Assembly (NCBI GenBank): GCA_016177845.1
Contig: JACOUO010000014.1
Span: forward strand, 187,005-251,004
DNA length: 64,000 nucleotides
From: Deltaproteobacteria bacterium
GTDB lineage: Bacteria; Desulfobacterota; GWC2-55-46
Direction of reading: 5' to 3'
Positions 9,758 through 64,000 of the stretch are shown here, piece by piece. Below the pieces are notes generated by a model. That model saw only the letters and a program-made list of their open reading frames with translations. It was not told where the DNA came from and searched no databases. Position 1 is the first letter of the stretch; every line of letters begins with the position of its first letter. The translations under genes were made by a program, and so were the position numbers.

Positions 9758-10417
9758 CTATTTGGAGCCTGCCTTAATTTTCTTATAGATGAACGGAATG
9801 AGGGAGACTATGACCACAAGCGCGAGCCCAACAATAAACTCCTTTGAGATTTTTCCTTTAAATACATCGAGTATGGAACTTGAAAATATGACAAAGGGGA
9901 CTACCGCAGGGGCTATGAATATAAAAGTTGCCAGGGCGTAATGGCTGAACTTGATATTTGTGAGCCCGAATGCGTAATTAAGGATATTAAACGGGAAAAG
10001 GGGTATCAGCCTTGTAAAAGCTACTATCTTCCAGCCCTGCTCTTCTACTTTTTTATCAAGCTCTTTTAACCTCCCCCCCTTCATTTTCGCCTCCACCCAA
10101 TCCCTGCCAAGGTATCTCGCAATCAGAAATGCAAGGGATGCCCCAAGTGTCGCTCCTATCATCACATAGACAGTGCCCCACAAAGGCCCGAAAAGAATAC
10201 CCCCCGCGACAGTAATAGGAAGGCCCGGCAGCATCAGCCCTGTTCCCATAATGTAAATGAGTATGTAGACTATCGGGCCCCAGCCGCCAAAATTATCTAT
10301 CCACCCCCTGAGCCTATCCTGGTCAAGATATTGCTCAAGCCCAAGCGCCCTGACCGAGATGAATGCCGCGAGTATGAATATTATGAATATCAGGAATTTT
10401 ATCGAGCCGCTTCGCAT
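9758..10417 (-). CDS. DedA/TVP38/TMEM64 family membrane protein
   Basis: Polytopic membrane protein with the DedA signature region (GxxxFGPLWG..., RLIPLFPFN). TAATG overlap with the upstream oxidoreductase gene. Confidence 0.8.
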   Translation of the reverse strand: MRSGSIKFLIFIIFILAAFISVRALGLEQYLDQDRLRGWIDNFGGWGPIVYILIYIMGTGLMLPGLPITVAGGILFGPLWGTVYVMIGATLGASLAFLIARYLGRDWVEAKMKGGRLKELDKKVEEQGWKIVAFTRLIPLFPFNILNYAFGLTNIKFSHYALATFIFIAPAVVPFVIFSSSILDVFKGKISKEFIVGLALVVIVSLIPFIYKKIKAGSK

Positions 10418-14300: not shown

Positions 14301-14439
14301 AAAAAACCTTGTTTTTATTTCTGAGTTCGCCTTAAGGAATAATAGTTGAATATACATCCTCATTTAAGCTAAAATTACGAGGAAAGTTGAACAATAAGAT
14401 TTGCGTCAAAGATTGCTGTTGCAGGTGAGCGGTTATATA

Positions 14440-15531: not shown

Positions 15532-15641
15532 CCTGAACCCCCAAAGAAATTTATGGATTACCTTCCCATGCAAGAGTGTTTTCTGAGTAACTGCCCTTCA
15601 GCCCATTCAGATGCTTTAAGCAAAGGAGGCATCTCCCTCCC

Positions 15642-43496: not shown

Positions 43497-44366
43497 ATGA
43501 GTATGAAATCTGAATCCATTACAATTAATTCTTTTAATGAATATATTGACATTGTTAATCGGTCAATGGGGAATATTTGTTTATTCCGGGGGCAAGTAGA
43601 AGATTTAGAATTACTTCCAAAAATAGCAAGACCTGAATGTATCGGTCTTTTTCAAAACCAAAGATTTATAGAGTCTTGGAAAAAAACAATTCCGGCTTTG
43701 CCGTCTAAAGATCTAAGTAACTTATTAAATGACGAAGAGCTTCCGATAACTAAACCAACTAAAGAAATGAAAAAATATCAGAAAGATTTTCTGTTATTTG
43801 AAATGAAAATGTTTTCAGAATTCTGCAGAGCATCAATTCCATATTTAAATGGTAAAATACCAAATGGTAAGTGGGAATGGCTCACATTAGCACAACACCA
43901 TGGTTTGCCAACTCGATTATTAGATTGGACGAAAAACCCCTTAATAGCATTATGGTTTGCAGTGCAGGACTCTTCAAAAATGTCTGAAGCTGAACAAAAA
44001 AGGTCTTCAACTTATGGTGTTGTTTGGCAATTCAATCCCAAAAATTCAGATTTTTTAAACACGTTGAAAGATAAAACTCCATTTTCATTAAAAAGAACAA
44101 AAATTTTTGAGCCAAATCATATATCACAGAGAATTGTCGCTCAATCCGCTTGTTTTACAGCACATAAATACTTAAATGATCGTGGTTTTATTTCTCTTAT
44201 TAGAAACAAATTCTATAAAGATAGATTATTTAAAATTATTATACCTTATAATAGATTTCCTATTTTAAAAAAGAGCCTTTCACATTTCGGCATAAATTCT
44301 GCTACACTTTTCGCCGATTTAGACAATCTTTGTAGAAATATTATTGAAGTGTACACTCCTGAATAG
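43497..44366 (+). CDS. FRG-domain protein, in an AT-rich island
   Basis: Contains the FRG-domain pattern GNICLFRGQ...LLP plus downstream WEWLTLAQHHGLPTRLLDWT (the Phe-Arg-Gly motif region). Local GC is about 32-35% versus ~48% in the flanks. Confidence 0.7.
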   Translation: MSMKSESITINSFNEYIDIVNRSMGNICLFRGQVEDLELLPKIARPECIGLFQNQRFIESWKKTIPALPSKDLSNLLNDEELPITKPTKEMKKYQKDFLLFEMKMFSEFCRASIPYLNGKIPNGKWEWLTLAQHHGLPTRLLDWTKNPLIALWFAVQDSSKMSEAEQKRSSTYGVVWQFNPKNSDFLNTLKDKTPFSLKRTKIFEPNHISQRIVAQSACFTAHKYLNDRGFISLIRNKFYKDRLFKIIIPYNRFPILKKSLSHFGINSATLFADLDNLCRNIIEVYTPE

Positions 44367-44690: not shown

Positions 44691-45548
44691 TTATTTTGAT
44701 ATGGTCTTTACTTCCGCTTTTGTCTTATCCGCTGCCTTTTCATCCTTCGGCTCCTCTATCTTGGGAGCAGGCTGTGAATGGCATCTGAAGCAGTCATCGA
44801 GCGGGAAGGCCACTTTAACATGGCATGTTCCGCAGTACTGGCCTGAGATAATCTTTATCATGTTCATCTCAGGGTTCCCGCCCTTCTGCTGCTTGAATAT
44901 GGAGGTGTGACAGGTCTCACAGTTCATCTGCTCTGTGTGCGCTTTATGGGGGAAGAGCACATCAGGCGGATGTGGCGTGAACTTTGTAACAGGGATAACT
45001 ACATCCATATCAAGGGCGTCAAGCGTTCCTTTGCCATCAGGCGAGGCCGCAGGTTTTATCTTACCTTCCCTTACAGCCTTTACCCAGTCGACCTTGTTGC
45101 CGAAGTGGTCTTTTGGAAGGTCCTTTAAGGAATCGTCAATATTGCTGTTCCCGGCGTTCTGCGCTCCGTATGAGTGGCAGCGTTTGCAGTTGCTGACAGG
45201 GAATGATGTTGTGCCGTTATGGCATGATCCGCAGTATTTGCCTGATTCTATATCAGCCTGTGTAACCCCGGTGGCATTTGGCTTCATCGCGAAGCCAAGG
45301 TCAGTATGGCAGGCCTTGCAGGTGTATTTGGCCCTGTGTGCCCAATGAGGAAAGAGCACAGGCTCAATTGTTTTTGAACTTCTGGTGTTTTTATCCATCA
45401 GCACAGTACCATGTGAGCCGGGCGCCTTGACTTTTTTCAGGTCAGTTTCCCATGTATTACCCTGCGCGTTTACTCCCTGGTAAAAGAAAAGGCCTGTGAC
45501 AAAGGCCGTTGATAATATGGCCAGACGCTTGAAAATTTTACTACGCAC
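44691..45548 (-). CDS. hexaheme c-type cytochrome: two tandem triheme cytochrome c7-like domains, membrane-anchored
   Basis: Six CxxCH motifs (CKACH, CGSCH, CKRCH, CETCH, CGTCH, CFRCH). Two c7-type FPHxAH motifs (LFPHWAHRAKYTCKACH, LFPHKAHTEQMNCETCH). GTG start at 45548 with a GGAGG RBS. An in-frame ATG at 45626 would overlap the upstream gene. Confidence 0.8.
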   Translation of the reverse strand: MRSKIFKRLAILSTAFVTGLFFYQGVNAQGNTWETDLKKVKAPGSHGTVLMDKNTRSSKTIEPVLFPHWAHRAKYTCKACHTDLGFAMKPNATGVTQADIESGKYCGSCHNGTTSFPVSNCKRCHSYGAQNAGNSNIDDSLKDLPKDHFGNKVDWVKAVREGKIKPAASPDGKGTLDALDMDVVIPVTKFTPHPPDVLFPHKAHTEQMNCETCHTSIFKQQKGGNPEMNMIKIISGQYCGTCHVKVAFPLDDCFRCHSQPAPKIEEPKDEKAADKTKAEVKTISK

Positions 45549-45598
45549 TTTAGACCTCCGTTTTAAAACTGACTTCAATTGACTCAATTGCTTTATTA

Positions 45599-46072
45599 TT
45601 AATAGCCGACATGGCATGAGGCGCATAATCTGAGGTAATCCACCCTTAACATCTTGGGATATCTGGACTTGTTGTGCGGGTCATGGCATGTATAGCAGAC
45701 CATCTCTCCGTCATCGGTTAAAGGCAGTTTAGCCGGAATTTTAATCTTGGGCATCTTGCCGATAGGATGCCTGGTAACCGGATGATTGGTCATATTCCCC
45801 GGATGGCATTTGGCGCATGTCGTAACCGGGTCAAAGCTGAGCCTCGGGGGCTCGCTCCCATGGCAGACTGAACAGGTGCTGTCATCATAATAGTTATGAG
45901 GATTGGCGCTTACCTGTCCCTCTTCTTCGGAATAAGCTGTTCCCGGATTTGTGATTCCGAGAACGGGCAAAAAGATAAGAAGTGCAAGAATAAGAATCGG
46001 GTTTATCAGGGCGCCTCTCCAATGGAACCGTTTTTTAAAAATTCTTTTACCTGAGGATTTATTCGGGTCCAT
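45599..46072 (-). CDS. tetraheme c-type cytochrome, N-terminal membrane anchor
   Basis: Four CxxCH motifs (CSVCH, CAKCH, CYTCHDPHN, CASCH) and a TM helix at residues ~20-40. Confidence 0.8.
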   Translation of the reverse strand: MDPNKSSGKRIFKKRFHWRGALINPILILALLIFLPVLGITNPGTAYSEEEGQVSANPHNYYDDSTCSVCHGSEPPRLSFDPVTTCAKCHPGNMTNHPVTRHPIGKMPKIKIPAKLPLTDDGEMVCYTCHDPHNKSRYPKMLRVDYLRLCASCHVGY

Positions 46073-46174
46073 GTCTTTATGCCGTCTTAAGTTTCAGGAA
46101 GTTTTTTAAGCTAAACTCCCGATTTTTTGAATTTGCCCGAAAAAAGTACGGGCGCCCCTTCTGACAGAGCGGTA

Positions 46175-48397
46175 CTAATTTGCGCAGGTCGAAACCGTAT
46201 TGCAGTTGTAAGTTGCCGTAACTCCGATAAAGTTTGTGAAGTTATAATTGCAGACCTTATCTGTGGCCGGTGTCACGGACCTGAAGTTCATCTCTACGCC
46301 CGTAGATGTAGTGGCCCGCTTGTGTGATTCCACGCAAGCGCCGTTCATGAGCCTGTAGCCGAGCGGGTCAGAGCCCGCAAGCGCGCCTGCAGCGGCATTG
46401 CTTCCGTGAACGCCCTTCATGACATTATTTATAGAGTCATAGCTTCCGCCATGGCATGAGAGGCAGAGTATGCCGAATTTGTTGCTGTTATTGCCTGTGT
46501 TGGACCCTGCGGTATAGAAAGGCGAACTTGTGCCAAGCCCGTCAACAGGGTGCGGAACCCTTGAGAAGTTGGCGTTCGGGCCGACATAGCCTTCATCTCC
46601 GTAGACATCTCTTCTGTGGCAGTTATAGCAGAAGTTGACAAGCGAGCCTGAGCCGGTCTGGTTCTTGTTAAGTATCCACTTCTGGTCTGAACCATGCGCG
46701 CCTTTAGGGTCGGCTGTAACGCTTGAAGAATGGCAGTCAGTGCAGGTCGAGGTGCTGTCATGCGTTACATTGAAGAACCCTGTCCTCTGGCCGACACCCG
46801 GGAAGTCAACATACCTGAATGTATTTGTCAGTCCAAGGTTATTTGCAGGCCAGTTCGGATTTGCCGATACGAAAGGCTGGTTCTTGCCCTGCGCGAACAC
46901 GGGGTGGTAGCTCATGTTATTTACATTGAAGTCCGCCGTCGGGTCTGACTGCAGGACGAGCGAACCGTCCGCATTGCCTGAGGGCACGCTCGGGTTTGTA
47001 ACGCCATAAGAATAGTAGGAATGGCACTTTATGCAGAGATAACCTTCAAGGTTATCTGAGCCGGGTGTCAATGAATTGAAATCCGTTACCGTGTATGTAA
47101 GCGCCTGATTGCCTGCTGAAGGCCATGCAGAGGGCTTCACGCCCCAGCTTCCGAGCACATTCGGAGCTATGATGTTGCCATTGACGCCGCCTATGGTATG
47201 GTTGCCGGATTTTGTGGCGTGTGAGTTATGGCAATCCGCGCACTCTGCGTGCCTGTTATTGCCGAGGTTTGCCGCTGACTCCCTCGCGGGCTCGCCCGGG
47301 CTCTGCCTTGAGGCTATATGAGAGCCGTAGGTGCCTTTTATATTATGTTTGTATAAATAGCTGAACTGAGGCTCCACATCTTTTGATGTTACATTCCCGT
47401 TATGGCAGTTAAGACAGGTCCATTCCTCATCAACTGTCTGCGATGTGGCGGGGTTTATCCCTTTGAGAAGGGATTTCCCTGCTGTGCCGTTATGAGAGCG
47501 ATGGCACGCAAGGCAGCTCTGCATCTGAGGCGTATCATCTGAAAAGCCTGCTGAGCCCATGTCTTCATGCCATGGGTTTACGCCATTGCCGTTCCATGTT
47601 GCCGTAGATGTTTTATGGATTGACGGATTTGTCTCCCAGAATCTCTTTTCATGGCAGTTAAGACAGAGCACGCCGCTTTCAAGCGAGCTTACCATGAATT
47701 TGGGATAAGCTGTCCCGTGCGGGTCATGGCAGCTGGTGCACTGTATCCTTCCTGAGCTGTCAACCTTTACATTGGGCGGAAGCAGTGTGTCGGATTTTAT
47801 TTCCGGGTTTGACGGATATGCCAATGAATATTCAAATGATATAGGGTGGTCATCCTTTAAGTCCGTTCCTATGTAAGAAGTCGAGGCCGAAGTAAGCTTG
47901 CCTGCAGTGACTCCGGTGCCTGTGACAGAAAAAGTGCCTGCCAGTGTTTTACCCGGCTGATTTAGGAGTGAGCCAAGGGCGATTGTGCCGTCATGGCATG
48001 AGAGGCAAAGTTTTGATGAACCCGTGGGCTGGCCCAATGTAGGAGAGTTCGGGCTTAATGTGGCAGCCAGTGTCTGGCTTTCATATACATTATAGGTGGC
48101 TCCGGTATCCTGCTTGTTCCAGACAGGGCCTGAAGGTGCGGCATTGTGCGGTGTATGGCAGAATACGCATACTTCAGAGGTCTCTGTTGTCTTTACCGCA
48201 GCCGTAGAAAGGCTTCCGAGGTTATGCTTGGTGCCGGAAACGCTCGCCCAGAGCTGGGTGGAGGTAAATGCAATTGTAAGGCCGGCTGCCGAGACTGCCA
48301 GAGCGGCTGCCAGATGTCGTTTTGAGCAGGTACGCCTCGCAGATAAAAAAGCCTCCTTTAATTCAGAAAGGGAAGAAGGTAATTTTTTCTTTTTCAT
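46175..48397 (-). CDS. large (≥11-heme) Ser/Thr/Gly/Asn-rich multiheme c-type cytochrome, probably extracytoplasmic or cell-surface
   Basis: Eleven CxxCH motifs, many with a CxxCHxxHN extension. Low-complexity S/T/G/N-rich composition. Signal-anchor AALAVSAAGLTIAFTS. The start is taken as the ATG at 48397 (MKKKKLP). The ORF extends to a TTG at 48445. Confidence 0.8.
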   Translation of the reverse strand: MKKKKLPSSLSELKEAFLSARRTCSKRHLAAALAVSAAGLTIAFTSTQLWASVSGTKHNLGSLSTAAVKTTETSEVCVFCHTPHNAAPSGPVWNKQDTGATYNVYESQTLAATLSPNSPTLGQPTGSSKLCLSCHDGTIALGSLLNQPGKTLAGTFSVTGTGVTAGKLTSASTSYIGTDLKDDHPISFEYSLAYPSNPEIKSDTLLPPNVKVDSSGRIQCTSCHDPHGTAYPKFMVSSLESGVLCLNCHEKRFWETNPSIHKTSTATWNGNGVNPWHEDMGSAGFSDDTPQMQSCLACHRSHNGTAGKSLLKGINPATSQTVDEEWTCLNCHNGNVTSKDVEPQFSYLYKHNIKGTYGSHIASRQSPGEPARESAANLGNNRHAECADCHNSHATKSGNHTIGGVNGNIIAPNVLGSWGVKPSAWPSAGNQALTYTVTDFNSLTPGSDNLEGYLCIKCHSYYSYGVTNPSVPSGNADGSLVLQSDPTADFNVNNMSYHPVFAQGKNQPFVSANPNWPANNLGLTNTFRYVDFPGVGQRTGFFNVTHDSTSTCTDCHSSSVTADPKGAHGSDQKWILNKNQTGSGSLVNFCYNCHRRDVYGDEGYVGPNANFSRVPHPVDGLGTSSPFYTAGSNTGNNSNKFGILCLSCHGGSYDSINNVMKGVHGSNAAAGALAGSDPLGYRLMNGACVESHKRATTSTGVEMNFRSVTPATDKVCNYNFTNFIGVTATYNCNTVSTCAN

Positions 48398-48441
48398 CTT
48401 AGCACCATCCGCTGCGGCCGTATTTTTCCTGCTGGGCAATA

Positions 48442-49545
48442 TCAATTCCCGTGATATTCAAAAACCTGAACCCTTTTGTTGTAAGAATCAGCTACATAAA
48501 CTTTATCTGCGCTGTCAATATATATGCCGGAAGGGCTCCAGAACTTTCCTGCCTCCCTGCCTACTGAGCCGAAATTCAGAAGGAAATTCCCGCTCCTGTC
48601 AAATATCTGCACTGTATCAAATATGGCATCAACAATATAAATATTCCCGTCATGGTCAACGGCAACACCCTTTGGCCTGCCTAAATCGCCTGTACCGTCG
48701 CCGTGCTTGCCTATTTTAGAGACGAATTTGCCATCCTTATCGAATATCTGTATCCTGAAATTCATTGTGTCAGTAACATAGAGCTCGTTTTTATTGTCGA
48801 TGAAGAGGTCGACCGGGTAGTTGAGCTCTCCATCTTTATCGCCCAATTTGCCAATCGTATTTACGAGGCCGCCTTTCAGGTCGTATACCCCTATATTATG
48901 CGAGCCTGTATCTGACACATAAAGGAGCTTATCCTGCCTGTTAATGGCAATTCCCGTCATCCTCTTGCCCTCGCCGATACTGCGAAGGTACTGGCCCTTC
49001 GGGCTGAAGACCAGGATCTTATTAAGGACAGAGTCCGTTATATAGATATTGTCTTCGCCGTCAACAGCCGCGGAGATAGGGGATTCGAGATACCGGTTAT
49101 CGTCAAGTTCGTCTATATAGCTGTATTTGCCGTTCTTGGCGTCGTATATGTGCACCCTTTTAAAAGCGGTATCGGCAACGATTATCCTTCCGGTGGAATC
49201 CGTTACAACTCCATAGGGTTTAATTATATCCTCAGATTTTGAACCGAGGACAAATTCTGCGAGTTTCTTGAAAAAGCCTTTATTCGCGCCTATGTCCGAG
49301 GGATTCGCTATTGTCGTTGAATAAGAGATCCTTGCCGGTTCCGGAGGGGACGGCCATATTATCGGCTTTGCCGCTAATTGCCGGTCTTCTTTTATGGGCT
49401 GAGAGCCGCAACCTGAAAATGAGAATAGAAATGCGCAAAGCGCAAGTCCCATGGACAAAGATGCGATGGCGCCTTTTTGAGAATTTTTTGCCGTATTCAC
49501 CTTTTGATTTCCAGACAGAGCTTTTTGCGGCTCAAGTGTGCTCAT
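48442..49545 (-). CDS. NHL-repeat six-bladed beta-propeller lipoprotein
   Basis: Lipobox FSFSGCGS. Six repeats of the NHL pattern (e.g. YVTDTMNFRIQIFDKDGKF, GVAVDHDGNIYIVDAIFDTVQIFD). Confidence 0.8.
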   Translation of the reverse strand: MSTLEPQKALSGNQKVNTAKNSQKGAIASLSMGLALCAFLFSFSGCGSQPIKEDRQLAAKPIIWPSPPEPARISYSTTIANPSDIGANKGFFKKLAEFVLGSKSEDIIKPYGVVTDSTGRIIVADTAFKRVHIYDAKNGKYSYIDELDDNRYLESPISAAVDGEDNIYITDSVLNKILVFSPKGQYLRSIGEGKRMTGIAINRQDKLLYVSDTGSHNIGVYDLKGGLVNTIGKLGDKDGELNYPVDLFIDNKNELYVTDTMNFRIQIFDKDGKFVSKIGKHGDGTGDLGRPKGVAVDHDGNIYIVDAIFDTVQIFDRSGNFLLNFGSVGREAGKFWSPSGIYIDSADKVYVADSYNKRVQVFEYHGN

Positions 49546-49561
49546 TCAATCGCCTCTAAAA

Positions 49562-50173
49562 TTATTTCCTGTGGCAATACTGGCAGATATCCAGGCCCGC
49601 TGAGCGGAGCCGCATCGTAAAATCCGCGCCCCAGTCAGCCCTGCCTGTAAGGAGCCCTCTTTCATGAGGGTTATGGCAGGTGGCGCAGATGATCTTGCCT
49701 GATTTAGGGTCAAGCGGAAGTATTGTGGGTACATCTTTAAGAGAGATCCGCATGTTGGTGGCGATTGCGGATGAGGGGACCACGAGGTGGTCAGGAGCTG
49801 CATAGCCGCTCATCGTAACGCTTGCGCCCTCTGTTCCGGGATGCTTTTTGACAAGATGGCATCTCGTGCAGATCTCGTTCGGGTTGTCCTCGAAATGGAG
49901 CTGGACATCTTTAATGGAATGCTCTTTTTTAATATCTGGTATCTGCTTATGGCAGACCGTGCAGGTGCCCCAGAGTATCTCGCCCGCATCGTTAATCTGT
50001 TCGTGAGGGTTTATGATTGTGCCGAGGGCCTCTCCTCTTTCATAGGGAGGGGTGGTCTCTTTCGGGGGTTCCGGCGCCTTTTGCGCTGAAAATGAGACCC
50101 CGGCCATGAATATAAAAGCTCCCGCCAGAATGGCAGGTTTTAAGTACTTTCCGAAATTTCTGTGCATATTCAT
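49562..50173 (-). CDS. tetraheme c-type cytochrome, secreted; paralogue of 45599..46072
   Basis: Four CxxCH motifs (CTVCH, CTRCH, CATCHNPHE, CQYCH) and a signal peptide. Confidence 0.8.
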   Translation of the reverse strand: MNMHRNFGKYLKPAILAGAFIFMAGVSFSAQKAPEPPKETTPPYERGEALGTIINPHEQINDAGEILWGTCTVCHKQIPDIKKEHSIKDVQLHFEDNPNEICTRCHLVKKHPGTEGASVTMSGYAAPDHLVVPSSAIATNMRISLKDVPTILPLDPKSGKIICATCHNPHERGLLTGRADWGADFTMRLRSAGLDICQYCHRK

Positions 50174-50210
50174 ACCTTTTTTTGCGGTGCTTGTTTAGTT
50201 CCCTTTTGTG

Positions 50211-51347
50211 TTACTTCGTGAATGAATAAATGCCGCCGTCTTCAGAGGTTATATATACCGCATTTTCAAAAACAACGGGTGAGGAATGTACGCCGCCGTT
50301 GGTTTGATACTTCCATGCCACTTCGCCTGCCTTCAGGTCTACCGCGTAAAGATAGCCGTCCTCACAGCCTACATAGAGGAGGCCGTTGCCGGAGACCGCC
50401 GGTGTGGAGTTTATTTCGGCAGGGAATTTATAATCAGCCGATTCTGTACCGTTTGCCTTATTGAATACCTTGATATGTCCGTTCTTAAACGCCATGTAGA
50501 GCTTGTCTTTGGTAATAACCGGGGAAGCATAGGCAATCTCGTTGTCCATGTTCTTTCTCCAGACAAATTTGCCGGTCTTTGCGTCCAGAGCGTATATAGA
50601 CCTGTCATATGAGGACACATAAATGATCCCGTCTTTTATGGCAGGGGATGAGTAGATGGCAGATTGAGTTCTTTTTGACCAGTTCCTTCCGCCGCTTTTG
50701 GCTGAAACCGAATATATCAGCCCGTTTTTGCCTGCGCCATAGATGGAGCCGTCCGAATAAGCCGGAGTGGCGTAAATGCCGCTGTATTTTTCGTAATCAG
50801 GCATCTTCATTCTCCAGGCGCGTTTGCCTGTTGAGAGATCTATGGCGTAGAGGTAGAGGTCTGATGAGCCGGCATATACCATGCCTTCGGCTACAAGCAG
50901 TGATGTCTGTACGGCGCCACCGGTATTGTGCTTCCATACGAGCTTTCCGGTTGCTGCCTCAACAGCATAGATGTTGCCGTCTTTTGAGCCGACAAGGACC
51001 TTATCTTCAAATACAGCCGGAGTCGAGACGATCTCTGCTTGCGTGGGGAAGCTCCAGAGCATATTCCCGGTTGCCGCGTCGATGGCATAGAGGTTTTTGT
51101 CATATGATGCCGCGTAAACGGTATTGTTGTTTACAACGGGGGAGGCGAATATGGCGCCTTTTGCCATGAACTTCCATTTAAGGGTAAGGGGAGGTACTGG
51201 GGCCTTTTCAGTATAAGATGAATGGGCCGGGGTTTTTAAGAACATTGGCCAGCTGTCGGCTTTTGCCTCAGCTGAAAAAAGGCCAAGGCCCAGTGAAAGG
51301 GCCAGTATGGTTATACTTTTTTGTATTGGGAATTTCTTAGGCTGCAT
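50211..51347 (-). CDS. PQQ-repeat (BamB-like) eight-bladed beta-propeller protein, secreted
   Basis: Signal peptide. Repeated A.Dg/a.TGk..W motifs (LYAIDAATGNMLWSF, IYAVEAATGKLVWKH, LYAIDLSTGKRAWRM, IYALDAKTGKFVWRK, LYAVDLKAGEVAWKY). Confidence 0.8.
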   Translation of the reverse strand: MQPKKFPIQKSITILALSLGLGLFSAEAKADSWPMFLKTPAHSSYTEKAPVPPLTLKWKFMAKGAIFASPVVNNNTVYAASYDKNLYAIDAATGNMLWSFPTQAEIVSTPAVFEDKVLVGSKDGNIYAVEAATGKLVWKHNTGGAVQTSLLVAEGMVYAGSSDLYLYAIDLSTGKRAWRMKMPDYEKYSGIYATPAYSDGSIYGAGKNGLIYSVSAKSGGRNWSKRTQSAIYSSPAIKDGIIYVSSYDRSIYALDAKTGKFVWRKNMDNEIAYASPVITKDKLYMAFKNGHIKVFNKANGTESADYKFPAEINSTPAVSGNGLLYVGCEDGYLYAVDLKAGEVAWKYQTNGGVHSSPVVFENAVYITSEDGGIYSFTK

Positions 51348-51360
51348 AGTTTCACCAGTT

Positions 51361-51963
51361 TTAAACCTTGAATTTTGAAAACTCCTGCGTAACCTCTCTC
51401 CTTACATTTGAGATCTGGCGGAGAACATCCGACAGTTCTGCTTTGGAAGGGGTCTTGTCAGAAGCCATGATGTTGTTGAGAGCCGTTATTTTCTCGTCTA
51501 TTACATTTGCAGACCTCTTAACTGAACGGAAACTTGCCCCAAGCGAGCCCAGCATTCCGTTAAAGACTTCAGGCAGGTCAATAGGCATTTTAATGGATAC
51601 TCTTTGAGTGAAATCCCCTTGAGCAGTTTTCCTGAGCGCCTCTCTGAAGCTCATCAGGGGAAGCTCGATGCGACGAGTAAGGTAATACCCTATAATGGCC
51701 GAGACCGCAATGATCGACGGTATGGTGATAGCGCTTAGTTTCCATATGATAGGAGCGGCTATCTCGGTAGTCGTCCTTATCTTAAGATGGATTCTATATA
51801 ACTCCGCTGAAAGTTCCCTGTCAATTAAAAAATATACGAAAAACAGGTTGAGCGCGAAGCCGAGCAGGACCGCTAAAGTAAAGCCCAGCACGAAATGCAA
51901 CTGTAGTCTTTTCTTTACGAAAAAATTGCGCCTTCTGTACTTTGGACGGGAATTTCTGCTCAT
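51361..51963 (-). CDS. small membrane protein: 2 TM + HAMP domain, no output domain
   Basis: TM1 at ~31-53, TM2 at ~93-112, then the HAMP pattern (LREALRKTAQGDFTQRVSIKMP...). 200 aa. Confidence 0.65.
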   Translation of the reverse strand: MSRNSRPKYRRRNFFVKKRLQLHFVLGFTLAVLLGFALNLFFVYFLIDRELSAELYRIHLKIRTTTEIAAPIIWKLSAITIPSIIAVSAIIGYYLTRRIELPLMSFREALRKTAQGDFTQRVSIKMPIDLPEVFNGMLGSLGASFRSVKRSANVIDEKITALNNIMASDKTPSKAELSDVLRQISNVRREVTQEFSKFKV

Positions 51964-52120
51964 ATGCGCCTATAAACTATCATAATTGAGGAGAATATTC
52001 AACCCGCTCAGATTTTAATACATCCATATTAAACCAGTATTAAAGCGGAATTAAGAGTTTAAAAAGCCTGTAACCGACAGAATATTATATCGGCAATACC
52101 GGAGCCGCCTTAAGTCCAAA

Positions 52121-52960
52121 TTATTTTACATGGCAGGCAAGGCACAAGGCGCTGCCTTCATTGCTTATGACAAGATCGAAATGCTGCTTGGAGTAAGGGT
52201 TATGACAGCTTCCGCAGCCTACGCCGCCGCCGAAGAGCTTTATCTGTGAAGGGAGTTCTTCAACCCTTCTGTAGGCGCCTTTATATTTACGCTTTGCCTC
52301 CAGATAGGAGACCCCTATTGGATGGCTTACGCCTATCTGGTTAGCGTCATGGAAAACGACATTGTCTACCCGCGTATCGGATGCTGATACCGCATCATGG
52401 CAGGAGAGGCATTTTATTGAAAGCTCATCAAGCACATTGCCAAGCTCCCATGCCACAAATTTAGAGCTGGTAGATGTAACTACATGGGCCGTGCCCATGG
52501 AGACCTTGTGCAAGTCATTTTCAAGGTCATTGTGGCATAACATGCAAAAACCCTGTCCGCCTGCGCTTGATCTTAAGTGGTACGCGCCCTTGCCCGGGTT
52601 ATGCGCCGGGTGGCAGGATATACAGGTCAGGTCGCCTTTCCAGTTAAGCGGGAAGCTTGCCGGAACCTGCATGGAAGGGTTTATATCAACAGGATGGGAC
52701 AGTTCCTTCTGGCTCGAATGGCACTCGTAGCACATGAAAGATATATCTTTTTTAAATGCGCGGGGAGTCTCACCCGGCTGCGGCACTGTCAGGTGGCAAT
52801 CAAGGCACTTCCCCTCGAAATCATGGTAGCTCTCCCATTGGGAAGATACCAGTTTTCCGATAAGCAGGAGCGATATGAAGGCGGCTATGATAATAAAAGT
52901 GTTTTTTTTCACAAATCTATTCTTTGACTTTGATGCCTGAGGTGGCCCTTTTAAGTTCAT
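52121..52960 (-). CDS. heptaheme c-type cytochrome, membrane-anchored
   Basis: Seven CxxCH motifs (CLDCH, CYECH, CISCHPAHN, CMLCH, CLSCH, CGSCHNPY, CLACH) and an N-terminal signal-anchor. An alternative GTG start at 52912 lies immediately after the upstream stop. Confidence 0.8.
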   Translation of the reverse strand: MNLKGPPQASKSKNRFVKKNTFIIIAAFISLLLIGKLVSSQWESYHDFEGKCLDCHLTVPQPGETPRAFKKDISFMCYECHSSQKELSHPVDINPSMQVPASFPLNWKGDLTCISCHPAHNPGKGAYHLRSSAGGQGFCMLCHNDLENDLHKVSMGTAHVVTSTSSKFVAWELGNVLDELSIKCLSCHDAVSASDTRVDNVVFHDANQIGVSHPIGVSYLEAKRKYKGAYRRVEELPSQIKLFGGGVGCGSCHNPYSKQHFDLVISNEGSALCLACHVK

Positions 52961-53513
52961 TGAGCCCCATTTTTAAATCCGCTATGGCCTCTTTCAGGTC
53001 ATGGTCAGAGGGATTATCCTGCTTAAGCAGCACTGCAAGCCGTTCTTCAAATTTTTCGATATCCGACAGCGCATCACCGCAGCTTCTTACATTATGGTTC
53101 AGGTCGCGGACCATTTTATTTATATCATCTGCAAGGGCTACAAGCTGATCCTCTCCCCTGAACCTTGTATCTACAGTGAGGTCGCCGGAGCCTATCAATT
53201 TAAGGTTTTCTTCAATGCGGTATATGGGACCGGCAATTTTATGCGAGAACAGAACGGATATCGTAATGATGGCCGCCGTAATAAGCGCAAGCAGGGCTGT
53301 TGAGTAGAATGAGGCAAAGATAAGCGGAAATATCCTGATCTTCAGGTCATATATATTATAGATGGCCTGCCCGTACGAGCCGCCGAGCGTCCTTGCTGTC
53401 ATTAAATACAGAAATAGCGTTATGCCCAGCATGCCAGCGATTACAAAAAGGCAAAACCTTATTCCATATTTTAATTTAAAGGCTCTTTGCACAAGTCCCG
53501 AGTCTTTTGCCAT
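52917..53513 (-). CDS. small membrane protein: 2 TM + HAMP domain, paralogue of 51361..51963
   Basis: TM1 at ~20-42, TM2 at ~63-88, then HAMP (IGSGDLTVDTRFRGEDQLVALADDINKMVRDL). 198 aa. Confidence 0.65.
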   Translation of the reverse strand: MAKDSGLVQRAFKLKYGIRFCLFVIAGMLGITLFLYLMTARTLGGSYGQAIYNIYDLKIRIFPLIFASFYSTALLALITAAIITISVLFSHKIAGPIYRIEENLKLIGSGDLTVDTRFRGEDQLVALADDINKMVRDLNHNVRSCGDALSDIEKFEERLAVLLKQDNPSDHDLKEAIADLKMGLNELKRATSGIKVKE

Positions 53514-58501: not shown

Positions 58502-60634
58502 ATGGGCGAAAAAATATTCAGGGTTATTTGGGGTGACTGGCGGTTCAGATTGTCAATAGGGACGAAAAGCCTCTTGGCTTTCCTGCTTATAATCAGCGTG
58601 CTTGCCGGTGGGTTTTATTATTTCACGAGCAATACGCTGGCCGACAGGATTGAGAAAGACGCCCTTGGTGAAATTGACCTGAAACTTAAAGGAGCCTGGA
58701 GGCTCTATTATACAAGAACCGAGCAGATGAAGCTCGGCATGCTTCAGGCAGGCAGTGAAGATGCCGTTAAAACGGCATTCGAGAGAGCAGATTCCATATT
58801 CCTGAGAAAACTTCTGAATGATTACACTATCCCGAGGCCTTATGTAAGCCTGTGGCTTGCGGTTGACGGCAACCAGAGGATAATCGGCAGAAGAAATGGC
58901 AATACAGGTGATTTTGTTGAGATAAACGGCCTTATAGCCAAGGCCTTGAGCACAGGCCAGTCCATCATATCGACAGAGTCGGTAACAAGGGAGTTCCTTA
59001 CAAAGGAAGATACCGTACTTGCTTCAAGAGTCGATACGGCAGGGCTCATGCAGGTAGTCGTGACCCCTGTTGAATCCAGGGGCAGGATTGTCGGCGCGTT
59101 CGTATCAGGCATACTCCTTAACAGGTATGACTGGCTGCCTAATTCCATTTTCGAAAGTTTCCATATTAATTCTGCCTTATTTACCGCGACAAACCAGGAA
59201 TCGAGGGTAATAGCATCTACCCTGCGTCCAAAAAGTATTTTCAATCCACTTGATGTCCTTCCCGAACAGGTCACCAAATCCATGGCTTCCAACAGGAAGT
59301 TTGTCGGCAGTTCCACCCTTGATAACACTGATGTGTATATCGGCGCTGAGCCCATCCTCAATTATGAAGGCGATGTGATAGGCGGGCTTGCCGTTGGTAT
59401 CTACAACTCAGAGGTAAAGCGATATGTGGACTCAACCGAGAAGAGCATTGTGATGTTCGCAGGCATAGGAGTGCTCTTCAGCATTCTTCTGGCATTCTTC
59501 GTTTACAGGGATACAGCAAAGCCCATAGCCGCCATCACAGGCGCGATGGATGAGATATCAAAGGGAAACCTTGAGGTAAGGGTCGAGATAAAGACAAAGG
59601 ATGAGTTTGAGAATATAGGCGAGGGGCTTAATCAGATGGTCAACTCCATCCGCATAAGGGAGGAGAGGCTTGACCGCTTTAACGAGCTTTCCAAGATACT
59701 TTTGGAGTATAACGACCCCGAGGAGCTTCTTGATAAGGCCCTTACAAGGATGATAGAGCTTACTGATTCCAACATGGGTGTCGTATATATTCATGATGAT
59801 AAGAATGAATCACTGAAGCCGCTTGCCTCATACGGCGTGGGCGAAGAGGAGCTTAAGAAGCTTAAAGTAGGCGAGGGGCTTGCAGGCAAATGCGCTTCAG
59901 AAAGAAAGACCATAATCCTTCAGGACATAACAGACGCGAACCTTTCCCTTGAGACAGGCTTTTCAAAGTTCAGGCCCTCAGGCCTTGTTTACTTCCCGAT
60001 GAATTACAAGGAGCATCTCAACGGCGTTTTTGTGATAGGCAGTCTTTCTCCGTATATTGAGGATGAGATAAAGCATCTTGAGCATCTTGTGACCCAGATA
60101 GCCATAGCGCTTGATAACGCGCTTACGCATCAGGAGATTGAAAAGCTCTCCGTCTCAGACCCGCTTACCGGCATCTACAACAGGAGGCATTTCATAGAGC
60201 TTCTTGAGAATGAGTTCACGGCAGCCAAGAGATACAAGTACATACTTGGCATCATGATGATAGATATAGATGATTTCAAGTTTATCAATGATAACTTCGG
60301 GCACCAGCAAGGGGACAGGGTTATAGTTGAGGTCAGCAGGATAATGCGCGATAAGACGCGCTCAACGGATACCTGGGGCAGGTACGGAGGAGAAGAGTTC
60401 ATAGGGTTTGCCTCTCACTGCGGGATGGAGGGTATGACCATCCTTGCAGAGAAGATAAGGAAGGGCATTGAGGATTTTGACTTCCCGAGCATGAATGGCA
60501 GAAGGGTAACGGTCAGTATCGGCGTAGCCTTCTTCCCGAGCGAAGGAGTAAAAGATCTTGAGGACCTTATCAAGTCGGCGGATGAGAACCTTTATAAGGC
60601 AAAAAGGAGCGGCAAGAACAGGGTAGTGGTGTGA
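58502..60634 (+). CDS. diguanylate cyclase: periplasmic sensor domain, TM, HAMP, GAF and GGDEF
   Basis: Two TM segments flank a ~270-aa periplasmic region. HAMP (AITGAMDEISKGNLEVRV), then a GAF-like domain, then a GGDEF domain with the RYGGEEF active site. Confidence 0.85.
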   Translation: MGEKIFRVIWGDWRFRLSIGTKSLLAFLLIISVLAGGFYYFTSNTLADRIEKDALGEIDLKLKGAWRLYYTRTEQMKLGMLQAGSEDAVKTAFERADSIFLRKLLNDYTIPRPYVSLWLAVDGNQRIIGRRNGNTGDFVEINGLIAKALSTGQSIISTESVTREFLTKEDTVLASRVDTAGLMQVVVTPVESRGRIVGAFVSGILLNRYDWLPNSIFESFHINSALFTATNQESRVIASTLRPKSIFNPLDVLPEQVTKSMASNRKFVGSSTLDNTDVYIGAEPILNYEGDVIGGLAVGIYNSEVKRYVDSTEKSIVMFAGIGVLFSILLAFFVYRDTAKPIAAITGAMDEISKGNLEVRVEIKTKDEFENIGEGLNQMVNSIRIREERLDRFNELSKILLEYNDPEELLDKALTRMIELTDSNMGVVYIHDDKNESLKPLASYGVGEEELKKLKVGEGLAGKCASERKTIILQDITDANLSLETGFSKFRPSGLVYFPMNYKEHLNGVFVIGSLSPYIEDEIKHLEHLVTQIAIALDNALTHQEIEKLSVSDPLTGIYNRRHFIELLENEFTAAKRYKYILGIMMIDIDDFKFINDNFGHQQGDRVIVEVSRIMRDKTRSTDTWGRYGGEEFIGFASHCGMEGMTILAEKIRKGIEDFDFPSMNGRRVTVSIGVAFFPSEGVKDLEDLIKSADENLYKAKRSGKNRVVV

Positions 60635-60662
60635 TTGAAGATAAAATTTAGAGAAATGAAAA

Positions 60663-60702
60663 CCGGGGCTGATTTTTTAAAATCAGCCCCGGTTCGGTTT
60701 TT
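60663..60702 (+). terminator. rho-independent terminator
   Basis: CCGGGGCTGAttttttaaaaTCAGCCCCGG followed by ttcggttttt. Confidence 0.75.
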
Positions 60703-61177
60703 AAGTATGGCGCAAAGGAGAGGCCTGGTGGTCTTTGTGTAACTTTCGGTCCCTTCGTTCCTAAAATAAAAAAGGCCAGCTTGATAGGATTCAACTGTTT
60801 CATTCTAGGGGGAGAAGTCCATACCTGTCAATTTCTCCTCGCTCTCAACGAATTTTGTCAATGAAAGTTTCAACGTACTGACCGTACCTCTAAAGTGATG
60901 AAAGAAGTTCAGGGGCGTTGTACGTCCAACGCGCCCCTTCGAAGTCCACGAGCCGTGATTTTGTGATATAATTCGAGCAAGTTTGAGCCTCGACAGCTTG
61001 CCATCCAACAAGACTGATTTACTCACCGCGCTTTCTTTCATCCCGAAAGACAAGCATCTTCTCCGAAAAAAGCAAGGCCTTCAAGTAAATATTTTAAACG
61101 TCTAAACTGGTCGAAAAAATGCCATTTCTTAATGGTTGTTTTTCGATTGTCAGACAGTCTATGATGGAGGTGCGCAT

Positions 61178-62434
61178 ATGGGTGCGTCGGATTTGGTGGA
61201 TAGGTTTTTCGGCTCTAATGGCTTTCTGCCTCACGGACATTGTTACTTGTGGCAGCCTGATCTGCTCTGGCTGAGCGTAATTTCGGATTCACTGATTACT
61301 CTGTCGTATTACTCCATTCCAGTTGCGCTGGTCTATTTCGTGTACACCCGCAAGGATCTGGCTTTCCGCTGGATGTTCGTCATGTTCGGTTTTTTCATCC
61401 TGGCGTGCGGCACGACCCATCTTATGAATGTATGGACGGTATGGGCGCCGTTGTATTGGCTCGATGCTTCCATAAAGGCCGTAACCGCCGTGGCCTCTGT
61501 CATTACTGCCGTGCTGTTGTGGCCACTCATCCCCAGGGCGCTGGAGCTGCCCAGCCCAGGGCAGCTCCAGCAGGTTAACGAGCAGCTTGAGGCGCAGTCG
61601 TACAAACTGATGCAGTCCAATGAGGCGCTGCGAGCCGAAATAGCCGAACGCGAACAGGCGGAGGCTGAGATACGTAGGTTGAACGAAGAACTTGAGCTAA
61701 AGGTCTCAGAGAGGACCAGGGAGCTGCTTGAAGCCCAGGAGGAACTGATCCGGAAGGAAAAGCTGTCCGTGCTTGGACAGATCGCAGGCAGCGTGGGGCA
61801 CGAGATAAGGAACCCGTTAGGGGTCATAAAAAACGCAATCTTCTATCTAAAGATGGTCCTGTCCGCTGCTGACAATAACACTAAAGAGTACCTTGACATC
61901 ATCAGGGAGGAGGTTGACATCTCCGAGCAAATCGTTGCCGATCTTCTCGATTTTGCCCGCACCAAGACGCCGCAAAAAAGGCCAGTGAACTTGAAAGCGC
62001 TTTTGACAAAGTGCCTCGAAAAAAACAAGATACCCGGAGCCGTTACCGTGCTGGATGAGATCCAGGAAAGCCTCCCTGCGGTATATGCCGACCCTGTGCA
62101 GTTAGGTCAAGTGTTTATGAACCTACTCAAAAACGCGGTTGAGGCGATGCCTTCCGGCGGATTCCTTTCGCTTAAGGCCGAAGAAATTCATCAATCCCAA
62201 GAGTTGAGGGTAGTAATTGCCGATACCGGTCAGGGGATATCCTCTGAGGGCATGTCAAGGCTTTTCCATCCGCTCTATACGACCAAGGCAAAGGGGCTGG
62301 GTCTCGGATTGACGATCGTGAAGAACCTTACAGAGGCGAACGGCGGAAGCATCAAGGTGGAGAGCGAGCCCGGGAAAGGTACAGTCGTTACAGTGAAATT
62401 GCCTGTGGTCAAGGAGGGACATGGTGAACAGTAA
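61178..62434 (+). CDS. sensor histidine kinase with an ethylene-receptor-like (ethylene-binding-domain, Cu-site) N-terminal transmembrane domain
   Basis: GGAGGT RBS 6 nt before the ATG at 61178. The N-terminal three-TM region aligns by eye with plant ETR1 residues ~25-125 (SYYSIPVALVYFVYTRKDLAFRWMFVMFGFFILACGTTHLMNVWT vs [45 protein letters not shown]), including the Cu-ligand Cys and His. A coiled coil follows, then HisKA (GSVGHEIRNPLG) and HATPase (GLGLGL) domains. Confidence 0.75.
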   Translation: MGASDLVDRFFGSNGFLPHGHCYLWQPDLLWLSVISDSLITLSYYSIPVALVYFVYTRKDLAFRWMFVMFGFFILACGTTHLMNVWTVWAPLYWLDASIKAVTAVASVITAVLLWPLIPRALELPSPGQLQQVNEQLEAQSYKLMQSNEALRAEIAEREQAEAEIRRLNEELELKVSERTRELLEAQEELIRKEKLSVLGQIAGSVGHEIRNPLGVIKNAIFYLKMVLSAADNNTKEYLDIIREEVDISEQIVADLLDFARTKTPQKRPVNLKALLTKCLEKNKIPGAVTVLDEIQESLPAVYADPVQLGQVFMNLLKNAVEAMPSGGFLSLKAEEIHQSQELRVVIADTGQGISSEGMSRLFHPLYTTKAKGLGLGLTIVKNLTEANGGSIKVESEPGKGTVVTVKLPVVKEGHGEQ

Positions 62435-63194
62435 GAAACTAAGGGTTCTTGTCGTGGATGACGACCGGAGAATGGTCAGGACGATCTTCGATATCCTTAT
62501 GAACAAAGGATACGAGGCGGTGTCCGTCCATACCGGCGAGGACGCGGTGGAAAAGGTCAGAAAGGAAAAATTTGATTGTGTCCTAATGGACATCAGGATG
62601 CCGGGCATAAGCGGCATTGAGGCATGCGGAAGGATTCATGAATTGTCGCCGAACCTTCCGGTGATCCTGGCAAGCGCCTACGCTACGGAAGAGATGGAGG
62701 CTGAAGCAAGAAAATACGGTGCATATGCTGTAATGATCAAGCCGCTCGACCTTCAGAGAGTTCTTTCATTTCTTTCATTGCTCATGAATGAGGAGAGCAT
62801 ACTCATTGTGGACGACGACACCAGGTTTTCCATGACGCTAAAAGATATCCTCAAAGCGAGGGGATACAGAGTGCAAACCGAAAGCAACCCGGAAAAGGTA
62901 CTCGGCCATATGGAGCAAAATTACAAATTGGTGGTGCTTCTTGACTTGAAGCTCGGAGACGCCGACGGGCTCGACGTCCTGAAGGAACTGCGGGCTAAAT
63001 ATCCTTCAAAGCCGGTGGTGCTGGTGACAGGCTATAGGGAAGAGATGGCTGGTTCGATCCAAAAGGGGCTTCAGATAGGCGCCTACACCTGTTTGTATAA
63101 GCCTCTTGAGATCGAGAAGCTTTTGGAATTGATCAGGGACGTCAGCAGAAGGAAAGTAGCGGAGATCCTTGGCGAGGAGTTTGAAAAGCTGTGA
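62421..63194 (+). CDS. response regulator with two tandem receiver domains
   Basis: AAGGAGGG RBS. REC1 (LRVLVVDDD...DCVLMDIRMPG) and REC2 (ILIVDDDTRF...LVVLLDLKLGD). No output domain. Confidence 0.8.
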   Translation: MVNSKKLRVLVVDDDRRMVRTIFDILMNKGYEAVSVHTGEDAVEKVRKEKFDCVLMDIRMPGISGIEACGRIHELSPNLPVILASAYATEEMEAEARKYGAYAVMIKPLDLQRVLSFLSLLMNEESILIVDDDTRFSMTLKDILKARGYRVQTESNPEKVLGHMEQNYKLVVLLDLKLGDADGLDVLKELRAKYPSKPVVLVTGYREEMAGSIQKGLQIGAYTCLYKPLEIEKLLELIRDVSRRKVAEILGEEFEKL

Positions 63195-64000
63195 AAGGCA
63201 AACTCAGGATACTGATTATAGACGACGACCCGATGGCCCGCAGAACACTGTCCGATATCCTGCATGTTTACGGGTATGAGGCTCTTGCCGCGAAGGACGG
63301 GGCCGAAGCGTTTGCCGAGTTGCAGAGGGGGCCGGTAAACCTTGCGCTTATAGACCTCCAGCTTCCAGACATTCCTGGAACCGATGTCATGGCAGGTATC
63401 AAAGATAGATCGCCTTCGACAGAGGTTATAATCATGACAGGCCATGCAACGCTGGAATCGGCAATAGAGGCGACAAACCGCGGGGCTTTTTCTTACCTCA
63501 TTAAGCCATATGATGTCCAGCAGTTGTTGCTGCACATCCAGCACGCGCTGGAAAAACAGCGGGTAGCGGAAGAATTGAGAAAGAGCGAGGAAAGGCTCGA
63601 CGAAGCGCAGAAGGTCGCGCATCTGGGAAATTGGGAATGGGATATTTCCGACAACGAGTTCTGGTGGTCCGATGAAATGTACAGGATCCTTGGACTGGCT
63701 CCGCAAGAGAAAGCCCTGACTTTCGAGGTTATTTTTTCCATCACCCATCATGACGACCGTGAGATATTTAGAGACGCAGTAAACGGATTGTTTTCCGAAC
63801 ACACTCCCTACAATATGAATTTCCGGGTCACTCATCCGGCTGTGGGAAAGCGAATCTTCCACGCCGAGGGAAAAACCAAGACAGGCTGGGACGGGAAGCC
63901 TCTCAGCCTGATTGGTGTCATACAGGATATAACCGAGAACATGCTGGCAGAGGATGCGCTGCGGGAAAGCAACGAGAGATTTCGTATCGCGTTCGAAAAC
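63191..64000 (+). CDS. response regulator receiver + PAS domain protein (3' end truncated by the window edge)
   Basis: GTG start overlapping the upstream stop (GTGA). REC domain (LRILIIDDDPMARR...LALIDLQLPD) followed by a PAS domain (LGNWEWDISDNEFWWSDEMYRILG). The ORF runs to the window end. The antisense ORF 63083..63862 is rejected. Confidence 0.7.
   Translation, partial: MKGKLRILIIDDDPMARRTLSDILHVYGYEALAAKDGAEAFAELQRGPVNLALIDLQLPDIPGTDVMAGIKDRSPSTEVIIMTGHATLESAIEATNRGAFSYLIKPYDVQQLLLHIQHALEKQRVAEELRKSEERLDEAQKVAHLGNWEWDISDNEFWWSDEMYRILGLAPQEKALTFEVIFSITHHDDREIFRDAVNGLFSEHTPYNMNFRVTHPAVGKRIFHAEGKTKTGWDGKPLSLIGVIQDITENMLAEDALRESNERFRIAFEN

Follow-up and report, generated by a model that had tools for sequence, protein, structure and literature searches.

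Here we have characterized a predicted signalling operon at the end of a 64,000-nt stretch of DNA (the window) from an uncultured deltaproteobacterium (GenBank assembly GCA_016177845.1, contig JACOUO010000014.1, positions 187,005 to 251,004 of the forward strand; positions below count from the first letter of the window). Its three genes encode a histidine kinase that is predicted from its sequence to carry a true ethylene-binding domain (EBD) with intact copper ligands, a protein made up of two receiver (REC) domains, and a multidomain protein identified as a diguanylate cyclase, for which the predicted output is cyclic di-GMP (c-di-GMP). We consider it probable, at roughly 70%, that this is an ethylene-receptor-type kinase operon in which sensing through Cu(I) is relayed via the REC-REC protein and the cyclase to c-di-GMP; we infer the ligand, the direction of regulation, the phosphotransfer partners and the phenotype. 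The kinase gene and its parts are as follows.

61166 to 61170, plus strand: putative ribosome-binding site GGAGG, 7 nt 5' of the kinase ATG (sequence inspection).
61178 to 62434, plus strand: gene of the EBD histidine kinase, 418 aa, from the ATG at 61178 to the TAA at 62434.
61229 to 61252, plus strand: motif P18-H19-G20-H21-C22-Y-L-W25, extracytoplasmic, adjoining transmembrane helix 1 (TM1) and outside the Pfam model (conservation in relatives).
61262 to 61549, plus strand: predicted EBD, residues 29-124, with three transmembrane helices (Pfam, BLASTP, AlphaFold2).
61403 to 61420, plus strand: ACGTTH in TM helix 2, with the predicted Cu(I) ligands Cys77 and His81 (alignment to ETR1).
61526 to 61774, plus strand: hinge IPRALELPSP (residues 117-126) followed by a long signalling helix (AlphaFold2, conservation).
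61775 to 61963, plus strand: HisKA/DHp domain with the H-box HEIRNPL, its phospho-accepting His208 at nt 61799-61801 (Pfam, motif).
62090 to 62407, plus strand: HATPase_c domain with the G1 box DTGQG at residue 349 and the G2 box GLGLG at residue 373 (Pfam, motif).

In GenBank the kinase (MBI1912226.1, locus tag HYS21_09505) is labelled 'hypothetical protein' despite a 137-bit match to ETR1_N and clear kinase domains. A preliminary description of this DNA had proposed that residues ~30-125 correspond to the EBD of plant ETR1, and a Pfam scan bears this out: ETR1_N (PF25487, 'Ethylene receptor 1-like, N-terminal domain') matches residues 29-124 over positions 2-97 of a 97-position model, at 136.7 bits (E=3.4e-40) against a gathering score of 27 bits. 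BLASTP aligned the kinase to the N-terminus of Arabidopsis ETR1 with 40% identity over 95 aa (E=1e-21); the numbering of the ETR1 query fits the published D25, C65, H69 and K91. By the BLAST offset, the ETR1 residues D25, Y32, I35, P36, I62, C65, H69 and K91 correspond to D37, Y44, I47, P48, I74, C77, H81 and K100 of the kinase, with identity at 8/8 positions. The motifs that had been pointed out by eye are also present, with ACGTTH (residues 76-81) in place of the CGATH of ETR1, FRW (63-65) in place of YRW and FGFFI in place of FGAFI.

The functional meaning of these positions comes from ETR1, for which the list of binding residues Tyr32, Ile35, Pro36 and Ile62 was compiled from two sources (PMC8879215, PMC6586836). 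C65 and H69 hold the Cu(I) cofactor, D25 is required for copper and high-affinity ethylene binding, and D25 is coupled to K91, which passes the signal to helix 3 (PMC10266040). Ethylene binding is abolished by mutations of Y32, I62, C65 and H69 (PMC8879215), and I35, P36 and I62 are counted as essential residues (PMC6586836). An alignment of 21 close homologues of the kinase showed Y44, I74, C77 and H81 to be invariant and D37, P48 and K100 to be at least 90% conserved. All eight residues are invariant in the best 80 species-level genome relatives; for C77/H81 and D37/Y44 this is in part a product of the search patterns (including FI[LI]ACGTTH), which placed no constraint on I47, P48 or K100. 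The assignment as an EBD is made because the HMM (hidden Markov model) match is full length and the Cys/His pair, singled out in the preliminary description, is conserved in orthologues. An AlphaFold2 model made with the 21 homologues (mean predicted local distance difference test score, pLDDT, 81.9) supports the three helices claimed there, at residues 27-57, 64-89 and 93-114 with a pLDDT of 80-91, and a Kyte-Doolittle scan (19 aa, threshold 1.6) flags TM2 and TM3 only (60-85 and 95-122), helix 1 falling below the threshold.

Conservation in these proteins extends beyond the Pfam model to the PHGxCxxW motif ahead of TM1. Residues H19, G20, C22 and W25 are found in 80/80 and P18 in 79/80 of the best 80 genome relatives, a level of conservation like that of the copper ligands, and in the 21 close homologues C22 is invariant and P18, H19 and W25 are at least 90% conserved. 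The motif does not occur in plant ETR1. The kinase has one Cys (Cys22) before TM1, a single Cys at this place having been noted for cyanobacterial receptors, and comment in the literature was found for the cysteine of the motif only (PMC6682694). The motif could represent a dimer disulfide, as the counterpart of ETR1 Cys4/Cys6, or an extra periplasm-facing His/Cys metal site.

The sensor is joined to the kinase core by a hinge in which L117, P119, A121, L124 and P125 are invariant among the 21 homologues and P127 is at least 90% conserved. From residue 127 AlphaFold2 predicts an unbroken helix to residue 227, through the H-box, followed by DHp helix 2 and then the alpha/beta ATP-binding domain; no GAF or PAS domain was found by Pfam between sensor and kinase (residues 125-199), where the model has one continuous helix. 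Pfam assigns HisKA to residues 200-262 (E=2.1e-11) and HATPase_c to residues 305-410 (E=7.1e-25). Residues ~180-415 match best AtoS (NCBIfam, 205.7 bits) and the ZraS structure 9jfj (PDB, E=1.7e-37), these AtoS/ZraS-type scores lying far under the equivalog cutoffs of 646 and 479 bits. Among the top 120 homologues, 42 are EBD-bearing proteins, 22 of which share the minimal layout of EBD, helix and kinase while the others add PAS, GAF or receiver domains. At 418 aa the present protein is about the simplest possible EBD kinase.

Downstream of the kinase lie the two genes that we assign to the same operon, and upstream of it a terminator-like structure.

60660 to 60695, bidirectional: perfect 15-16 bp GC-rich hairpin resembling an intrinsic terminator, 26 nt past the stop of the upstream gene and taken as the end of the preceding unit.
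62421 to 63194, plus strand: gene of the tandem-receiver protein (ORF2, open reading frame 2), 257 aa from the ATG at 62421, or 256 aa from the GTG at 62424 used in public assemblies.
63191 to 64000, plus strand: 5' 270 of the 905 codons of the diguanylate cyclase gene (ORF3), with a GTG start, continuing past the window.

Kinase and ORF2 genes overlap by 14 or 11 nt, depending on the start, and ORF2 and ORF3 by 4 nt (GTGA). These overlaps, together with the terminator-like hairpin upstream and, downstream, 340 bp between genes in which a promoter-like site lies, define an operon of three genes with the kinase first. The receivers of ORF2 and ORF3 match Response_reg of Pfam (E=1.2e-50 and 4.5e-26). 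Both receivers of ORF2 have complete active sites, REC1 (residues ~9-116) with D13/D14, D57, S85 and K107 and REC2 (residues ~127-240) with D131/D132, D175, T203 and K227. These residues are invariant in six orthologues, and the protein has no output domain. A PDB search with ORF2 recovered no solved tandem-REC-only relative. Within the window ORF3 contains a REC (residues 7-116; D11/D12, D55, T83 and K105 as read from the sequence) and a first PAS domain (PAS_3). The receivers of ORF2 and ORF3 match AtoC-type receivers best, which, with the AtoS/ZraS-type kinase core, is consistent with cognate pairing.

The preliminary description correctly recognized the double REC but took the third gene for a REC-PAS protein, which is now seen to be the first 270 aa of a much longer enzyme. 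An exact-protein look-up retrieved two contigs of 10-13 kb, which match the window at 100% identity over 9,094 and 5,891 nt, and the first of these (L001) holds the rest of ORF3 at 8285-11002. The complete protein of 905 aa has the order REC-PAS-PAS-GAF-GAF-GGDEF (PF00990, E=2.4e-47), and its C-terminus reads ...GHTAGD...RQTDLVARYGGEEF..., with an intact GGEEF, an I-site RQTD five residues upstream and Asp as the specificity residue. The GG(D/E)EF active site, the RxxD I-site and the Asp versus Ser (Hypr) specificity residue have their meanings from PleD and GacA. A Hypr-GGDEF identity (cyclic GMP-AMP synthase), which was considered on account of the Geobacter-like host, was ruled out by the Asp. 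With ORF3 assigned as a diguanylate cyclase, the predicted output of the operon is c-di-GMP. The operon does not encode a PleD-type REC-REC-GGDEF protein in a single polypeptide, since the REC-REC protein and the cyclase are separate genes.

Seven EBD kinases from among the closest homologues (46-56% identity) were compared by gene context. In four of the seven loci an orthologue of the tandem-REC gene (247-252 aa) is accompanied by a REC-(PAS or GAF)-GGDEF gene, with varying gene order and usually with extra kinases; a fifth has REC-REC followed by a hybrid kinase, and the remaining two have a single REC instead, followed in one of them by a REC-PAS-HD gene. Full-length identity among the REC-REC orthologues is 59-65%, as against 51-54% for the kinase cores. 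Kinases with dCache, HAMP or PAS sensors that cluster with an EBD kinase have nearly the same DHp as their local EBD kinase, from which shared partner specificity is predicted. When metagenomes were searched with the REC-REC alignment, at least 351 relatives came up, and the 23 loci of at least 9 kb were tallied. A related kinase core is present in 23/23 of these loci, two or more kinases in 18/23, and a REC..GGDEF gene in 17/23, mostly immediately downstream. The downstream pair had at first been called unusual, a view that these counts contradict: REC-REC plus REC-GGDEF is a widespread output cassette that takes varied sensor kinases, with the EBD as one input in this lineage. In sediment and groundwater metagenomes the cassette appears as one to four kinases that are nearly alike in their DHp helices but differ in sensor (dCache, HAMP, PAS, EBD), a tandem-REC protein of ~250 aa and a REC-x-GGDEF or REC-kinase hybrid (loci L083, L086, L088, L090, L091 and L092-L171, e.g. 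L133:492-10010 and L147:1-8764). No published description of this combination of kinase, REC-REC and REC-GGDEF was found in the literature searched.

On the reading that we prefer, Cu(I) at Cys77 and His81 (with Asp37) would bind ethylene or a similar small pi-ligand within the membrane, by homology with ETR1 and with the bacterial receptors SynEtr1 and AzoEtr1. The resulting change would be relayed by the Asp37-Lys100 bridge and the hinge into TM3 and down the signalling helix as far as His208, altering autophosphorylation. The phosphoryl group would then pass to Asp57 and Asp175 of the co-translated REC-REC protein and/or to Asp55 of the cyclase REC, and c-di-GMP synthesis at the GGEEF site of the cyclase would change, with effects that would most likely reach surface attachment and biofilm behaviour. 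Ethylene would be one of several inputs integrated into a single c-di-GMP decision, because the cassette is shared by paralogous kinases that are nearly alike in their DHp helices but carry different sensors. The REC-REC protein may act as an adaptor, as a modulator of kinases in the way that DivK acts on PleC and DivJ, or as the phosphate sink of the preliminary description, which is a guess.

Support for this scheme comes from other bacteria. Binding of 14C-ethylene has been shown for EBDs that share the seven residues, in AzoEtr1 (PMC11819568) and in SynEtr1 and Geitlerinema (PMC6682694). Two further observations are in line with a c-di-GMP output, namely that ethylene affects biofilm in Synechocystis and Azospirillum (PMC6682694, PMC11819568) and that a diguanylate-cyclase gene adjoins GeiEtr2 (PMC6682694).

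Several observations weigh against it. A PDB sequence search with the kinase matched the kinase core only and found no solved EBD relative. An EBD kinase occurs in only 2/23 of the tallied REC-REC loci, which are two near-duplicate contigs, and the idea of REC-REC as a general partner of EBDs was rejected on finding it in 0/80 of the genome EBD loci, mostly cyanobacterial; the link between EBD kinase and REC-REC is clade-specific. The host, moreover, is an uncultured subsurface Geobacter-like bacterium, probably an anaerobic metal reducer, and not a plant associate, as judged from a multihaem cytochrome cluster in the window and from relatives labelled Geobacteraceae or drawn from groundwater and sediment samples. 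Microbial anaerobic formation of ethylene does exist, by methylthio-alkane reductases (PMC12552129), and because there are such anaerobic routes ethylene is a plausible natural cue here. No paper linking ethylene receptors to Geobacter or deltaproteobacteria was found by literature search.

The most serious competing explanation concerns the partners and not the sensor. Other paralogous kinases, encoded elsewhere in the genome, may chiefly serve the REC-REC protein and the cyclase, with the EBD kinase acting mainly as a phosphatase or modulator, or the REC-REC protein may be only a phosphate sink; we regard this as a minority possibility. REC-REC loci usually hold at least two related kinases that carry other sensors, and the near-identical DHp domains of co-clustered kinases, from which cross-talk is expected, also speak for it, as do the complete phospho-acceptor pockets of both ORF2 receivers in a protein without an output domain. 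Within the operon, however, the EBD kinase is the sole kinase and its gene overlaps that of the REC-REC protein, while the only other kinase of the window is 33% identical in the core and is paired with a REC-HD-GYP gene of its own. The higher conservation of REC-REC than of the kinases also suggests a specific interaction and not a passive sink. A broader proposal, which we hold tentatively and with a similarly low expectation, is that a Cu(I)-binding gas, ethylene or another, is a real cue for anaerobic subsurface Geobacter-like bacteria, read by the minimal EBD-helix-kinase receptor. This input would be combined with others in a network of several kinases, in which paralogues with exchangeable sensor heads and near-identical DHp helices all act on one tandem-REC protein and one REC-diguanylate cyclase, and PHGxCxxW would be functional. 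The role of the motif would then be Cu(I) entry, a second metal site or a dimer disulfide.

Somewhat less likely again is a true EBD that responds to another signal, be it copper availability, redox or oxygen through the Cu(I) site, or another Cu(I) ligand; candidates relevant in anoxic sediment are another alkene, an alkyne, carbon monoxide or an isonitrile-like compound. The subsurface context (multihaem cytochrome cluster, Geobacter-like relatives, groundwater and sediment homologues) lends this some weight, and the invariant periplasmic PHGxCxxW, absent from plant receptors, could be a second metal site; ligand specificity has, besides, been measured for few EBDs only (PMC11819568, PMC6682694). 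Set against these points, none of the residues at which mutation abolishes ethylene binding in ETR1 is changed in the kinase, and binding of ethylene by EBDs with this residue set was saturable in SynEtr1, in AzoEtr1 and in whole cells of Geitlerinema (PMC11819568, PMC6682694). There are also no copper-homeostasis genes in the 30 kb upstream that were examined (window positions 30-64 kb).

Horizontal gain of the signalling module as a unit is improbable. The preliminary description noted a slightly GC-richer segment, and this is accurate: the GC content of 61178-64000 is 0.5165, the top value among all 2.8-kb windows (mean 0.474, standard deviation (sd) 0.018; ~+2.3 sd), and the GC content at third codon positions (GC3) of the kinase gene, 0.642, is the highest of 43 genes (mean 0.549, sd 0.061), the three operon genes having values of 0.642, 0.624 and 0.599. 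A non-coding gap of ~480 nt precedes the operon, and the best EBD match among the genome matches listed lies in a different phylum (Methylomirabilis, 72%). The separate acquisition that had been deduced from the GC rise is nevertheless set aside as unsupported. The excess amounts to ~4 points, and a GC3 nearly as high, 0.629, is seen in the housekeeping gene hemE 5 kb upstream, with a GC content of 0.50 for hemH and hemY. Farther downstream the GC content declines, to 0.498 for the complete cyclase gene and 0.477 for the gene after the operon, and neither an integrase or transposase nor a tRNA or repeat boundary was seen next to the operon. A genuine compositional outlier is available for comparison in the FRG-domain gene of the window, with a GC content of 0.309.

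A fortuitous likeness to ETR1_N, for example that of a generic three-helix membrane anchor, is practically negligible, since beyond the general compositional bias of transmembrane segments nothing favours it, whereas the HMM match is full length (E=3.4e-40), the polar functional residues within the helices are all as in ETR1 and the conserved relatives number in hundreds.

The regions flanking the operon have features of their own. Directly upstream, at 58502-60634 on the plus strand, a separate transcription unit encodes a further c-di-GMP enzyme, a dCache-HAMP-GAF-GGDEF protein (710 aa) that has GGEEF and the I-site RSTD. In the gap between this gene and the kinase an 82-aa minus-strand ORF at 60805-61053 gave no Pfam match and was taken as non-coding. 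A minus-strand near-consensus sigma-70-like promoter (TTGACA-18-TAGAAT, 11/12) runs from 60831 to 60802 and faces the hairpin at 60695-60660; promoter and hairpin (60650-60831) could define an antisense or intergenic small RNA of ~110-140 nt. The fold z-score of 60650-60831 is -3.9, mostly from the hairpin, and the region has no Rfam match. Over 58.2-64 kb an Rfam search found no riboswitch or known RNA and one sub-threshold miRNA match on the terminator hairpin. The 340-bp gap 3' of the cyclase, with its promoter-like site, leads to a ParA/MinD-like gene; past the window end, L001:11342-13333 encodes this ParA/MinD/BcsQ-like ATPase (314 aa) and a two-HAMP protein cut by the contig end (GC 0.563).

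Elsewhere the window contains the cluster of multihaem c-type cytochromes together with NHL/beta-propeller proteins, and the hemE-hemH-hemY genes. The cytochromes (44691-53513, minus strand; c7-type, with paired CXXCH, MtrC/MtrF-like) lie among NHL-repeat and PQQ-like beta-propeller proteins, an arrangement that suggests extracellular electron transfer in the Geobacter-like host. The FRG-domain gene (43497-44366, plus strand), in a low-GC patch at ~43.0-44.5 kb, has a GC3 of 0.231, compared with window means of 0.479 for GC and 0.549 for GC3, and is probably foreign DNA. At 14401-17441 (plus strand) the gene of a REC-HD-GYP-type protein (HD_5, 376 aa) precedes that of a PAS histidine kinase (599 aa), and the two form a c-di-GMP-linked two-component pair; at 40741-43383 (minus strand) there is an 880-aa fusion of DHH/DHHA1, two CBS domains and the head domain of a poly(A) polymerase or CCA-adding enzyme.

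These findings do not overturn current understanding. EBD kinases are already known and widespread in bacteria: our genome scan (six-sequence alignment) turned up EBD relatives from many phyla, in at least 598 species, and SynEtr1 and AzoEtr1 have been shown to bind ethylene. What makes this example interesting is its minimal architecture, the predicted c-di-GMP output, the ecology of the host and the plugging of a sensor into a shared cassette. Predicted ethylene sensing is extended to an uncultured subsurface bacterium, probably a metal reducer, that is neither phototrophic nor plant-associated. The 418-aa kinase and 22 relatives of like build are attractive for a first experimental EBD structure and for in-vitro studies of the coupling of ligand to kinase. 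The operon would offer a direct route from an EBD to c-di-GMP, which fits the biofilm phenotypes of Synechocystis and Azospirillum. The more general result may be the REC-REC plus REC-GGDEF cassette itself, supplied by kinases whose sole difference is the sensor head.

Comparison with known systems places the kinase close to ETR1 in its sensor and apart from it in the remainder. Both proteins have a three-helix N-terminal EBD followed by a HisKA/HATPase kinase, a Cys within a short extracytoplasmic N-terminus and an N-out/C-in layout, the last being predicted here from loop charges and from homology with ETR1. The present kinase lacks the C-terminal receiver and also the GAF domain between sensor and kinase, the absence of which sets it apart from the plant-type architecture. 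It has one N-terminal Cys, in PHGxCxxW, where ETR1 has Cys4/Cys6, and its output is predicted to run by His-Asp phosphotransfer to c-di-GMP where ETR1 acts through CTR1/EIN2. A single N-terminal Cys is also present in the cyanobacterial ethylene receptors (PMC6682694, PMC11819568). Among these, SynEtr1 (slr1212, UirS/PixA) is likewise a bacterial EBD kinase that binds ethylene, with phosphotransfer to a regulator and effects on cell-surface and biofilm traits. It differs in adding PAS and cyanobacteriochrome GAF domains for dual sensing of light and ethylene and in acting via a DNA-binding regulator and the small RNA CsiR1, whereas the present operon is without a photosensory module and has a diguanylate cyclase as its predicted output enzyme.

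Another counterpart is AzoEtr1 of Azospirillum brasilense, a non-cyanobacterial EBD kinase in which the seven binding residues are present and whose operon continues directly with the gene of a response regulator; residues 1-130 bind ethylene, and biofilm formation is affected (PMC11819568). To the earlier remark that such proteins are sparsely characterized outside cyanobacteria it can be added that one non-cyanobacterial EBD receptor, AzoEtr1, has now been characterized (PMC11819568). AzoEtr1 differs from the present protein in being an EBD-PAS-HK (histidine kinase) protein of 525 aa with one downstream regulator, from a plant-associated alphaproteobacterium. In its core and its H-box HEIRNPL the kinase resembles the AtoS/ZraS-type (NtrB-like) kinases, from which it differs in sensor and partners and in having no sigma-54 activator. 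An analogy may be drawn with the DivJ/PleC-DivK-PleD system of Caulobacter, in which several kinases feed an output-less receiver and a receiver-diguanylate cyclase encoded side by side, and in which the receiver-only protein can modulate the kinases. The likeness is at the level of domains: DivK has one REC and PleD a tandem REC, while the present operon encodes its tandem REC as a protein of its own and joins a single REC to PAS and GAF domains in the cyclase.

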